The position numbers were made by a program, and so were the translations under genes. DNA of 6,929 bases from a virus. Taxonomy: Duplodnaviria; Heunggongvirae; Uroviricota; Caudoviricetes. Below, one piece after another: positions 979 through 6,929 of this stretch (position 1 is its first letter; each line of letters starts with the position of its first letter). The notes beneath the pieces were generated by a model. It made no database searches, was not told the origin of the DNA, and saw only the letters and a program-made list of their open reading frames with translations. The stretch lies in IMG/VR virus record IMGVR_UViG_2751185958_000012. One strand, written 5' to 3'.

Positions 979-1052
979 GCGGGCGTAGTTCAATGGTAGA
1001 ACGAGAGCTTCCCAAGCTCTATACGAGGGTTCGATTCCCTTCGCCCGCTCCA
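979..1052 (+). tRNA. glyU: tRNA-Gly, anticodon CCC, 74 nt including encoded CCA
   Basis: Cloverleaf folded by hand. Acceptor stem GCGGGCG (979-985) pairs with CGCCCGC (1042-1048). D stem GTTC/GAAC. Anticodon stem AGAGC/GCTCT with loop TTCCCAA, anticodon CCC at 1011-1013. T-loop TTCGATTC. Discriminator T then CCA at 1050-1052. Confidence 0.95.
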
Positions 1053-1186: not shown

Positions 1187-3465
<2,279 letters not shown>

Positions 3466-3471
3466 AGGGGG

Positions 3472-3494
3472 ACTAAACTATCACTATAGGGAGA
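3472..3494 (+). promoter_or_regulatory. T7-class promoter-like sequence P2: ACTAAACTATCACTATA|GGGAGA, +1 at 3489
   Basis: The 14-mer TCACTATAGGGAGA is identical to T7 consensus positions -8 to +6. The upstream specificity region (-12 to -9, ACTA) differs from T7 (CGAC). Lies 29 bp downstream of P1 on the same strand. Confidence 0.7.
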
Positions 3495-3845
3495 GACCCT
3501 AAGTCCCCCCGGCTTAATACAGCCACCGACCCACACATTCATTAAATCTCAGGCTTCCGGTAGCGGACCGATTGGAAACCATCCGCAATAAGCCTAGTGT
3601 TAAATCACCTTGGCCTGAGACCATTCCCTTTAACGTAGCAATCTCTCTCCTTTGACAGGCGGAGAACATCAGACCTCAGCGGAACTTCCGTCTATGAGAC
3701 CATCGGTGTGCGAGATTGTGAAGAACCAAGACATCATTGCTGAGGTCTGCCATCCATTGTGGACAGGCGGAAACTCAAAGAGGTTAGACCAGTAGTGGTG
3801 TCTGAGGTCGGACTTTGAGTCCTGACCAGCAGGCTGGAGGAGACC

Positions 3846-4028
3846 ATGAGTTTATCTTGTTATGGATTGTGTTATCACAATTCCAATAAGAAGAACTTTA
3901 AGTCCAGCCTCCACTCCCGCCAACCCGAAGTAAACTATGGTCGCTATGATGTGGTCTCCATGCTTCGGGTCTTACTGGAAGTACTGAACACTTTCGCGTC
4001 AAGTTCTCCGAAGTTCATTCCTGTTTGA
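3846..4028 (+). CDS. Hypothetical small protein, 60 aa
   Basis: Strong Shine-Dalgarno GGAGGAG (3836-3842) with a 3-nt spacer before ATG 3846. Sits about 360 nt downstream of the tandem phage-type promoters. No recognisable domains; could instead be part of a structured leader RNA. Confidence 0.4.
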   Translation: MSLSCYGLCYHNSNKKNFKSSLHSRQPEVNYGRYDVVSMLRVLLEVLNTFASSSPKFIPV

Positions 4029-4050
4029 CTAAACTATCACTATAGGGACC
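4028..4050 (+). promoter_or_regulatory. T7-class promoter-like sequence P3: ACTAAACTATCACTATA|GGGACC, +1 at 4045
   Basis: A 22-nt exact repeat of P2 (3471-3492 equals 4027-4048, GACTAAACTATCACTATAGGGA). Abuts the stop codon of ORF 3846-4028. Confidence 0.7.
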
Positions 4051-4102
4051 ATATCTCGCCTCTGACCTCCTGAGAGACGGCAAGCGAGAAACCGTGGTCC
4101 AC

Positions 4103-4116
4103 GCTAGCAAGCTAGC
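4103..4116. repeat. 14-bp near-palindromic motif GCTAGCAAGCTAGC, copy 1 (two GCTAGC palindromes separated by AA)
   Basis: Exact 14-mer is repeated at 5503-5516. Copy 1 lies 58 nt downstream of the P3 +1 position. Confidence 0.5.
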
Positions 4117-4364
4117 CACCAGCCTAAGGCAAGACAGCCTCTGGTCAGCCTGTGTGTTCTTTGGTCTCGTGACTTAAGTCTATCACCACACACGCTCGGA
4201 CATGCTGTCGAACCTTCATCTCTATGGTCATCGCAGACCACTAACCCCAATTACCTCAAGTCATTCTGTTTGCGTCCTGTTGCCTGCTGGTCTCCCTTTA
4301 CGTGGGGGCTTGAGTAGGTCAGTGGGGTGCGACTTCAGGGTGCAAACAAAAGGAGTACACGTAA

Positions 4365-4397
4365 ATGACCCAACAAGAAATCAGCGTCATTAACTGA
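4365..4397 (+). pseudogene. Probable native 5' end of the Rha-like gene (MTQQEISVIN), cut off by the IS629-like insertion
   Basis: AAGGAG RBS at 4351-4356 with an 8-nt spacer before ATG 4365. The ORF runs only 10 codons, to a TGA that is the first three bases of the IS terminal repeat (4395-4397). Same reading frame as the downstream Rha-like ORF. Confidence 0.4.
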
Positions 4398-4631
4398 ACC
4401 GCCCCGGGAATCCTGGAGACTAAACTCCCTGAGAAAGAGGTAAACAGGATGACTAAAAATACTCGTTTTTCCCCCGAAGTCCGTCAGAGGGCGATTCGTA
4501 TGGTTCTGGAAAGTCAGGGCGAATATGACTCACAGTGGGCGGCAATTTGTTCCATTGCCCCAAAGATTGGCTGTACACCGGAGACTCTGCGTGTCTGGGT
4601 ACGCCAGCATGAGCGGGATACCGGAGGCGGT
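4395..4631 (+). mobile_element. IS3-family (IS629-like) left-end fragment, about 237 bp: terminal inverted repeat plus the first ~61 codons of orfA
   Basis: Begins TGAACCGCCCCGGGAATCCTGGAGACTAAACTCCC, which matches the IS629/IS1203 left end as I remember it. Encoded N-terminus [61 protein letters not shown] is the HTH part of IS629-type OrfA. Similarity stops near 4631; the breakpoint is placed from memory and is approximate. Confidence 0.75.
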
Positions 4632-5336
4632 TCAAACCTCGACCAGCTTGTCTCCATGACCTCAATTGAAATTGCTGAGCTGACAGGCAAGGAGCACCGA
4701 AATGTCCTGCGTGATATTCGCAATATGGCTGAGGAGCTTAACGCGCTCAAAACTGAGCAGTGCTCAAAACTGAGCAGTCATATCGGGGTGACTAAAGATG
4801 TTTATCTAAACGCGCAGGGGAAACAGCAGCCTCTGTACCGTCTCGACCGTAAGCATACTTTTATTCTGGTCGCTGGCTATTCCGTTCACCTCCGCGCCAA
4901 GTGTTACGACCATATTCAGACGTTAGAGCGTCGAGTCCTTCAACTGGAAGACCAGAAGAAGCGAGCAGCCATTCAGTCTGCTAACCGTCGAGGCGTGACT
5001 TGGGGCGACTACTGCAAAACCTATGATCTACCCGCTCAGAAGCTAATGACCGCACTTCTCCAGCATCGTGGCCTCTTTCGTAAGAACCCAATCAGTAACG
5101 AGTGGTCTGTAAATCCGAAGTATTCCGACTGCTTCCGTATCATTAAGCCGTCTGACCAGAAGTTCTCAGCAGGTGGTTATAACTTTCGCTTCAACGCTAA
5201 GGGATTGGAGGTCTTCGGTAAGCCTGCGATAGTCGATAAACTGCGAGGCATCCTTATTGCCTTCACTGGCACCGACCAGCAGAAGCAAGAGCATCTCCTG
5301 AAGCAGGCCCAATCCGGCAAGCTGGAGGGACTCTAA
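4449..5336 (+). CDS. Chimeric ORF, 295 aa: IS629-like OrfA N-terminus (aa 1-61) fused in frame to a Rha / KilA-C (ANT) phage antirepressor-like protein (aa 62-295)
   Basis: Rha signature [22 protein letters not shown] ... [43 protein letters not shown]-terminal KilA-C/ANT-like segment [44 protein letters not shown]. The start codon and RBS are IS-derived. Confidence 0.8.
4745..4778. repeat. Perfect 17-bp tandem direct duplication (GCTCAAAACTGAGCAGT x2) inside the Rha-like ORF
   Basis: Units at 4745-4761 and 4762-4778 are identical. The unit length is not a multiple of three. Confidence 0.9.
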
Positions 5337-5337
5337 G

Positions 5338-5529
5338 ATGATTGACCCGCGCACACCTGAGGGCCGCATGACTCTCCGTTACCGTGGCTACCGGACTGAA
5401 GTCCTCCTCAGAGAGCTTGGTCTAGACCCGGAAGATGAGACCCGCCAGCACCAATCACGAGACGAGCTGATAGTGCAACTGGTCGCTATGAAACTGCCGT
5501 CAGCTAGCAAGCTAGCGCCTAACCGTTAG
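5338..5529 (+). CDS. Hypothetical small protein, 63 aa
   Basis: ATG 5338 lies 1 nt after the upstream stop (TAA 5334-5336). GGAGG at 5324-5328. No recognisable domains. Contains the second copy of the GCTAGCAAGCTAGC motif near its 3' end. Confidence 0.45.
   Translation: MIDPRTPEGRMTLRYRGYRTEVLLRELGLDPEDETRQHQSRDELIVQLVAMKLPSASKLAPNR
5503..5516. repeat. 14-bp near-palindromic motif GCTAGCAAGCTAGC, copy 2
   Basis: Exact repeat of 4103-4116. Confidence 0.5.
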
Positions 5530-5649
5530 CAGCTCACCTACTTAATACCTCATTTTAAACCTTTTGAGATGACCGATGCGGGGAGACGCCGCAGGACTAA
5601 ACACGCCTGTGGTCGACCGATAGTCTCAACCTCAAAGGAGTACCAGCAT

Positions 5650-6482: not shown

Positions 6483-6929
<447 letters not shown>

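Follow-up and report, generated by a model that had tools for sequence, protein, structure and literature searches.

Slipped-strand contingency loci, formed by simple-sequence repeats inside open reading frames (ORFs), are known from Haemophilus, Neisseria and Campylobacter. The locus described here, a 17-bp tandem duplication in the coding region of a Rha-family regulator gene, resembles them in having an intragenic tandem repeat with a unit that is not a multiple of three, so that a change in copy number shifts the frame and turns the gene OFF, and in being polymorphic for copy number among near-identical isolates. It differs from them in carrying two copies of a 17-nt unit rather than many copies of a 1-7-nt unit, and in having a single open state (n = 2) rather than one at every third copy number, because the unit, when read in its third frame, contains a stop. 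The switching rate here is probably much lower as well, since two copies of a 17-mer probably change far less often than the classical simple-sequence contingency loci. On sequence anatomy and natural variants alone (a tract inside an ORF, a frameshift on gain or loss of one unit, and polyphyletic copy-number variants), the site may be classed with contingency loci as a candidate and not as a proven member.

Three further systems are close to this one. The CTGG x3 frameshift hotspot of lacI, said to go back to Farabaugh et al. in 1978, reportedly dominates the spontaneous mutation spectrum of that gene through gain or loss of one unit. Like the present locus, it affects a regulator gene through one-unit changes of a short tandem repeat, with no purpose implied; here, in contrast, the unit is a hairpin-forming 17-mer and the wild type itself depends on two copies read in two frames. 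In pneumococcal cap3A, duplications of tens of bases occur in the ORF and exact loss of one copy toggles the gene (Waite et al. 2001, as outlined in PMC11163986). As far as that outline goes, an intra-ORF tandem duplication with exact copy loss toggling the gene is common to both, whereas the polarity is reversed: in cap3A duplication is OFF and loss is ON, while here two copies are ON and loss or gain is OFF, so that the present locus is not of the cap3A type (PMC11163986). Promoters of Mycobacterium tuberculosis undergo phase variation through the copy number of tandem repeats with larger units, and the variants are polyphyletic (PMC12817950). Larger units and polyphyletic variants are shared with the locus studied here, but the M. 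tuberculosis repeats lie in promoters and tune expression, whereas the present one is intragenic and acts by frameshift (PMC12817950).

We analysed the repeat in a 6,929-nt stretch of DNA filed as a virus record (IMGVR_UViG_2751185958_000012), referred to below as the window, and in its relatives. The locus is a natural example of an unusual logic, in which the gene works in its duplicated form, the same 17 nt specify two peptides and a single copy number is permissive. Our results identify it as a recurrent mutational off-switch and not a fixed oddity, although the gene of the window is already disrupted at the 5' end.

A 17-nt unit translated in two frames

Direct comparison revealed two head-to-tail copies of GCTCAAAACTGAGCAGT with zero mismatches. 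The copies and the hairpins that they contain are located in the window as follows.

4745..4761, + strand: repeat copy 1 (GCTCAAAACTGAGCAGT), starting at codon position 3 and read (A)LKTEQ(C)
4745-4758, + strand: hairpin of copy 1, GCTCA-AAAC-TGAGC, within repeat copy 1
4762..4778, + strand: repeat copy 2, identical in DNA to copy 1, starting at codon position 2 and read (C)SKLSS
4762-4775, + strand: hairpin of copy 2, within repeat copy 2

Tandem Repeats Finder returned 4745-4778 with a period of 17, 2.0 copies, 100% matches and a score of 68, and the identity between the copies does not extend into the bases on either side. When the window was shuffled 100 times, no perfect tandem exceeded 11 bases, compared to the 17 observed. 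Both results support the preliminary description of this DNA, which had reported a perfect 17-bp tandem duplication in a Rha-like ORF and judged it unlikely to arise by chance.

A length of 17 nt is ≡ 2 mod 3, so that the ribosome reads the first copy as LKTEQ and the second, though identical, in another frame as SKLSS. The third frame of the 17-nt unit reads AQN followed by a stop (TGA), and a third copy falls in that frame; the gene is therefore open at two copies only. Adding or removing one unit frameshifts the ORF. On the background of the intact gene, one copy leads to ...KTEQSYRGD-stop and a product of 56 aa, and three or more copies lead to a premature stop and a product of 60 aa. The two Rha blocks that flank the repeat are thus joined in frame only at two copies and a change of one unit inactivates the gene, as had been proposed, leaving stumps of 56 and 60 aa. 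Programmed ribosomal frameshifting was also considered and was rejected, as no slippery heptamer of the form X XXY YYZ can be read in the unit.

The AlphaFold2 model of the intact protein has a mean pLDDT of 78.6. In the N-terminal domain, where confidence is 85-91, helix 30-47 is separated from the beta-hairpin 61-80 by a loop of low confidence (pLDDT below 50), residues 49-57, and it is exactly these residues that the units encode. Such a position accounts for the variety of insertions that the segment tolerates. As part of the explanation that we favour, the unit probably encodes a flexible loop of the DNA-binding domain, with the long helix on one side and the beta-wing on the other. No solved structure was matched significantly by fold or by sequence, the hits being weak and winged-helix-like. 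The intact relative matched phrog_10324, 'anti-repressor Ant', with E = 2.4e-69, and the name 'antirepressor' is accordingly a putative one, taken by homology from the PHROG annotation.

Recurrent gain and loss of one unit in natural strains

The gene is present in 131 of 5,426 complete E. coli genomes. Copy number was typed with synthetic one-copy and three-copy queries, for which ungapped matches were sought in complete E. coli genomes. The one-copy query was matched without a gap only by strain 104 (NZ_CP029164) and by two independent assemblies of E166 (NZ_CP032066 and NZ_CP095801), and the three-copy query only by 7_12_30A (NZ_CP074845). Among the matches listed, the remaining genomes of the window's allele type had a span of 261 bp, corresponding to two copies. 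One- and three-copy variants hence account for 4 of about 122 complete-genome records, representing two one-copy strains and one three-copy strain. PGAP labels all one- and three-copy variants 'frameshifted', and copy-number differences thus account for near-identical genomes being annotated sometimes with a 'Rha regulator' and sometimes with a 'frameshifted pseudogene'.

The surroundings of these variants are identical to those of two-copy loci. A three-copy locus (L004) aligned to the two-copy locus of O26:H11 strain 11368 over 9,278 bp with 0 mismatches and a single 17-nt gap, and one-copy draft loci (L077, L078) aligned to two-copy O26-type loci (L018, L017) over about 5,537 bp, again with 0 mismatches and a single 17-nt gap. 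Flank haplotypes were defined from 665 bp of flanking sequence in 30 loci. Haplotype 2 comprised one-, two- and three-copy loci and haplotype 1 comprised one- and two-copy loci; two further haplotypes also had one-copy alleles, and one of these haplotypes belongs to an island that has another integrase and is located elsewhere on the chromosome (ynfE/F). The variants are therefore polyphyletic, being spread over four flank haplotypes, with near-identical isolates differing in copy number. The presence of one-, two- and three-copy states on identical backgrounds indicates a recurrent slippage hotspot that inactivates the gene. Loss and gain of one unit is recurrent and recent in natural strains.

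These comparisons bear on whether the duplication is a fixed ancient feature without instability, which the preliminary description had tied to homologues all sharing the same two-copy arrangement. Two copies are indeed found in the great majority of genomes, and the KTEQ...SKLSS reading is preserved in distant alleles. Comparison of homologues for unit number nevertheless revealed one-, two- and three-copy alleles on otherwise identical backgrounds, and variants on zero-difference backgrounds in several haplotypes refute a stable feature, the probability of which we regard as negligible. Artefacts of sequencing or assembly could in principle produce the same variants, many of the contigs being from short-read drafts, and are highly improbable: four complete-genome records carry variants, the two independent E166 assemblies agree, and the variants recur across NCBI, ENA and Logan. 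The array of 34-51 bp is also shorter than the read length, and a two-copy array should offer no repeated k-mer of at least 21 bases to collapse. Both a fixed stable feature and an assembly artefact are effectively excluded by the identical-background loci and by the agreement on E166.

Truncated products were also found in a collection of 15 billion proteins. The 56-aa (one-copy) product was on 141 contigs and the 60-aa (three-or-more-copy) product on 743, the latter being set against counts of at least 1,000 contigs for each of the two commonest intact 242-aa sequences, lower bounds from which no ratio can be formed. The 743 contigs might stem mainly from one heavily sequenced clone. The one-copy product occurred on five protein backgrounds, Salmonella enterica included, and no truncated product is on record in this collection on the L006-type, Klebsiella 29-bp-type or MTQQ-type backgrounds.

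Taken together, we consider it likely that a slippage-prone tandem duplication brings about stochastic, recurrent OFF mutation of the Rha regulator in E. coli, Shigella and Salmonella. In this mechanism, translation of the two copies in two frames brings the ribosome back into the frame of the Rha block that follows. One unit would be added or deleted when the copies misalign in replication or exchange unequally, and the 5-bp hairpin in each unit may favour misalignment. A step from two copies to one, or from two to three, would turn the gene OFF and leave the 56-aa or 60-aa stump. A return from three copies to two would use the same mechanism as the step from two to one and is thus to be expected, so that changes between two and three copies are plausibly reversible. 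A return from one copy to two would need a fresh duplication and should be rare, the frame otherwise being restored by a 1-nt change in an A run; the step from two to one would hence be close to one-way unless re-duplication or a second-site indel occurs. We infer this mechanism, together with the contribution of the hairpin, the reversibility and any physiological use.

Origin of the duplicated segment and its hairpin

Species-representative genomes contained five loci, a number too small for tracing the alleles, and the allele set was instead drawn from metagenome and viral sequences and from individual protein records. The segment between the ...RDIRNM.EELN and Y(R/H)LDRKH blocks is hypervariable across the family. 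The commonest alleles (233 aa) have a single unit, in frame. Diverged 17-nt pairs are found with 15/17 identity (L006, P0085), 14/17 (P0031) and 10/17 (P0088, P0091), a Klebsiella allele has a perfect 26-nt repeat with a period of 29 that is read LKTEQPESR and then SKLSSQNLG, and other alleles have in-frame repeats of 36-57 nt. Diverged alleles thus have out-of-frame pairs of 17 or 29 bp where the window has its repeat, and the architecture is therefore old.

The length difference between long alleles and short in-frame ones is 27 or 42 nt. This excess equals a 17- or 29-nt duplication (≡ 2 mod 3) plus 10 or 13 nt (≡ 1 mod 3), indicating at least two mutually compensating frameshifts. One locus (L079 301-1086, protein P0094) has three ELN units, the last of which is a single 17-nt-type unit with A3 and not A4; its frame is restored (ALKLSSPIG) by -17 -1 = -18 nt, and the allele is a natural second-site rescue of the one-copy state. 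The suggestion made earlier that the duplication had compensated a previous frameshift fits both the 27/42-nt excess and this rescue, but the compensation is old and shared across genera and is not an event of this strain. The linker was also aligned for its ancestral frame, another point raised at that stage. According to the short alleles (ALKTE-LVGEEVY), the ancestral frames are the copy-1 frame upstream and the HIGVTEDVY frame downstream. The copy-2 frame as the ancestral one on the left side was rejected, as it is contradicted by the same short alleles.

Such a history raises the question of whether selection keeps the repeat because the island or the host gains from reversible ON/OFF switching of Rha, which might govern how a defence island or satellite is induced, is excised or interferes. 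A single open copy number would give a clean binary readout, and one-unit events in both directions have occurred repeatedly on identical haplotypes. Pairs that are out of frame still occupy this position in alleles with as little as about 65% protein identity, and several of these pairs are close to perfect. The two L006 copies differ from the window unit by the same two substitutions, pointing to copy turnover, which would be in line with a switch, or to parallel change. However, the pair has decayed to 10/17 identity in some alleles, the commonest alleles with their one in-frame unit have no switch, and no OFF-to-ON event has been seen directly among natural alleles. In addition, the gene is disrupted in many cases by IS1 insertions and other frameshifts, and with so many unrelated inactivating events it may be simply decaying under weak selection, a possibility that also weighs against the explanation favoured above. 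We regard an adaptive switch as unlikely and favour stochastic OFF mutation at a slippage-prone site.

The unit forms a hairpin, GCTCA-AAAC-TGAGC, with a 5-bp stem (ssDNA dG -4.3 kcal/mol, z -3.9). Covariation of the hairpin was scored in 30 distinct instances taken at fixed offsets, whether pairing or not. Stem cells were paired in 94% of cases, compared to 83% in shuffles (0/500) and 11-43% in slid controls, and three of the five stem pairs showed double changes (GC to CG, UA to CG and CG to UA). The signal was weaker for the orthologous first positions alone, with 87.6% paired (1/500). The stems observed were GCTCA/TGAGC, CCTCA/TGAGG, CCCCA/TGGGG and GTCCA/TGGAC. Every allele examined keeps at least one perfect hairpin, the most distant one (L064, 56% identity) with a 4-bp stem and a G·T pair, while the peptides encoded over the hairpin change between alleles, from LKTE to PNSG, LSFE or SKFG in one frame and from SKLS to PKLG, STLR or PTLD in the other. 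Related sequences can beat shuffles without any structure, and we therefore regard a constraint on the nucleic acid as suggestive. A conserved hairpin in a hypervariable, repeat-prone coding loop offers a tractable model of DNA secondary structure shaping indel evolution in genes.

The conservation of the hairpin could alternatively mean that the 14-nt dyad NNNCA-N4-TGNNN is a DNA or RNA element and the protein a passenger. The element might be a binding site, an iteron-like site or an RNA hairpin, and duplication would alter the number of sites, which ranges from one to five per allele. In phage lambda, the origin iterons lie within the linker-coding part of gene O, and the dyad read as a cis-acting element is comparable in that its sites would be inside a coding region. 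The excess of stem pairing over shuffles, the double changes and the retention of a perfect hairpin under changing peptides are in line with such an element. Against it stand the weaker signal at the orthologous first positions and the fact that kinship alone can beat shuffles. Copies of the dyad (GCTCA-N4-TGAGC, CTCA-N4-TGAG and, for L006, CCCA-N4-TGGG) were sought outside the repeat in the window and its relatives and none was found, bar one match with one mismatch in the integrase gene; the dyad has no second copy elsewhere in the islands and an operator was rejected on this ground. A search of Rfam at E ≤ 1 with window positions 3400-5600 gave no match.

Moreover, proteobacteria keep short perfect inverted repeats through template-switch correction without any function (PMC5941160, PMC7202029). 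Those repeats resemble the hairpin studied here in being short, kept perfect across orthologues and marked by paired changes (PMC5941160; PMC7202029), and differ from it in that the present one lies inside a tandemly duplicated coding unit, in whose duplication and deletion it would have a role. The conservation of the hairpin may thus reflect function or template-switch upkeep of a short inverted repeat. A cis-acting element with the protein as passenger is in our view quite unlikely. The dyad might more specifically be a functional cis element of the island, such as a candidate site for Rha or another island protein, with the duplication coupling site number to the frame of the regulator; this is a shade more doubtful again, and if true would provide a heritable, reversible ON/OFF state for a defence island or satellite.

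Several other features of the family were observed. An in-frame 57-bp unit, ELNGSKTEQRDSGSSTLSS, occurs twice in strain MSB1_9D and once in other alleles (L002 2810-2950 and L035), and each such unit holds a diverged copy of both 17-nt motifs, 12 nt apart. At the 5' end, P0175-P0179, P0184 and P0091 are polymorphic for the number of in-frame 9-nt QQP units, giving the N-terminal versions MSQQEIS, MSQQPQQEIS, MSQQPQQPQQEIS and MSQQPQQPQQPQQEIS. Two relatives (L057, L061) share the coiled-coil and C-terminal domain and have an unrelated, non-Rha N-terminal domain, indicating a modular family. Independent IS1 insertions lie within a few bases of hairpin 1 (L068/L069, ~301-440; P0149, P0171, P0175, P0177 and P0179). 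In S. flexneri (strain M90T among others) and in two viral contigs the insertion point is after ELNA, and on a different background, in 32 contigs, it is after ELNALK; the surroundings of the hairpin may additionally be a hotspot for IS1 insertion. In Leclercia adecarboxylata NCTC13032 (L023), the Rha homologue is frameshifted just upstream of the hairpin (…RDIRNMAGGA-stop), possibly by a genuine mutation and possibly through a homopolymer error in long reads.

The interrupted gene and its defence island

The gene that holds the repeat in the window lies on an island at a tRNA gene and is cut near its 5' end by the remnant of an insertion sequence (IS). The features concerned are listed below.

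979..1052, + strand: tRNA-Gly(CCC), the island integration site; intact relatives have its last 17 bases (3' end) again at the distal island boundary
1187..2794, + strand: island tyrosine integrase, 535 aa
2787..3446, + strand: PD-T7-4 / RAZR anti-phage defence gene, zinc ribbon and DUF4145/HEPN, with R146 and H154 present
4365..4394, + strand: native 5' end of the Rha gene, severed after ATG and 9 codons by the IS remnant, which opens with TGA as the next codon
4395..4634, + strand: IS3-family remnant TGAACC...GGTTCA, 240 bp, with an AAC target duplication at 4392-4394 and 4635-4637
4449..5336, + strand: chimeric ORF, 295 aa, made of IS OrfA residues 1-61, a junction Ser and Rha from residue 10
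4635..5336, + strand: body of the Rha-family regulator gene, codon 10 to stop, with 98% DNA identity to the intact 242-aa E. coli gene (WP_000082600.1)

The ORF at 4449-5336 had been described as Rha-like throughout. This holds for the part from about residue 63 onwards, which contains Phage_pRha (PF09669, residues 70-160) with 64.9 bits against a cut-off of 29.9 and so belongs to that family; residues 1-62 are OrfA of an IS3-family element, Pfam placing the IS transposase HTH (PF01527, the IS3-family OrfA N-terminus) at residues 1-64. The IS interruption of the Rha 5' end had been missed. Megablast likewise splits the window DNA at about 4632-4635, with IS3-family transposase genes upstream (more than 1,500 records) and 'Rha family transcriptional regulator' at 98% identity downstream. 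The intact gene from E. coli (L001, 729 bp, WP_000082600.1) served to locate the Rha start at 4365. An intact start codon of its own is absent from the Rha gene of the window, which is cut after 10 codons, and is present in the E. coli relatives.

Positions 1-237 of an annotated IS3-family element match the remnant with 96% identity. An internal deletion, with GGCGGT as the microhomology at the joint, has fused this stretch to the final bases of the IS right end, and the remnant has the TG...CA terminal inverted repeats and 3-bp target duplication of the IS3 family. No complete orfA/orfB transposase is present in the 240 bp that remain at 4395-4634. From the IS orfA start at 4449, the frame runs into Rha codon 10. 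The exact 295-aa chimera is on record in Shigella only, on 31 contigs that include CP001063, which we take to be S. boydii CDC 3083-94, and the IS/Rha junction was found in no complete E. coli genome. One-copy or three-or-more-copy truncated products are not on record on the Shigella chimera background, which comprises just these 31 contigs. The chimeric ORF of the window is possibly non-functional, its repeat sitting in a gene already cut at the 5' end.

The product of 2787..3446 matched PADLOC PDLC04109 with E = 2.7e-102 over residues 1-209 of 211, and its translation includes R146 and H154, which are catalytic positions in RAZR (PMC13017515), placing it among the RAZR proteins. A full-length RAZR gene beside an integrase identifies the tRNA-Gly element as a small defence island. 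The island spans ~6.4 kb at tRNA-Gly(CCC), as measured in E. coli H2 (about 6.4 kb), and carries the tyrosine integrase, PD-T7-4/RAZR, the Rha gene and several uncharacterised ORFs. It is bounded by a 17-bp direct repeat, TCCCTTCGCCCGCTCCA, from the 3' end of tRNA-Gly (641-657 and 7033-7049 in L001; also in L015, L074, L011 and L012). The Rha gene is the only recognisable regulator on this RAZR island of pathogenic E. coli (O26, O103 and O111) and Shigella, and strain differences in its ON/OFF state could thus affect the behaviour of the island.

The same type of element is found in the ynfE/F region of other strains (L005, L006, L075). A fragment of an IS3-family OrfB (rve integrase core; 6510-6917, - strand) interrupts the distal island at the end of the window, and the far attachment repeat therefore lies outside the window. 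At the other end, an IS1 terminal inverted repeat is present at about 61-96, upstream of actS, and related Shigella loci (L009-L012) have a full IS1 in that position.
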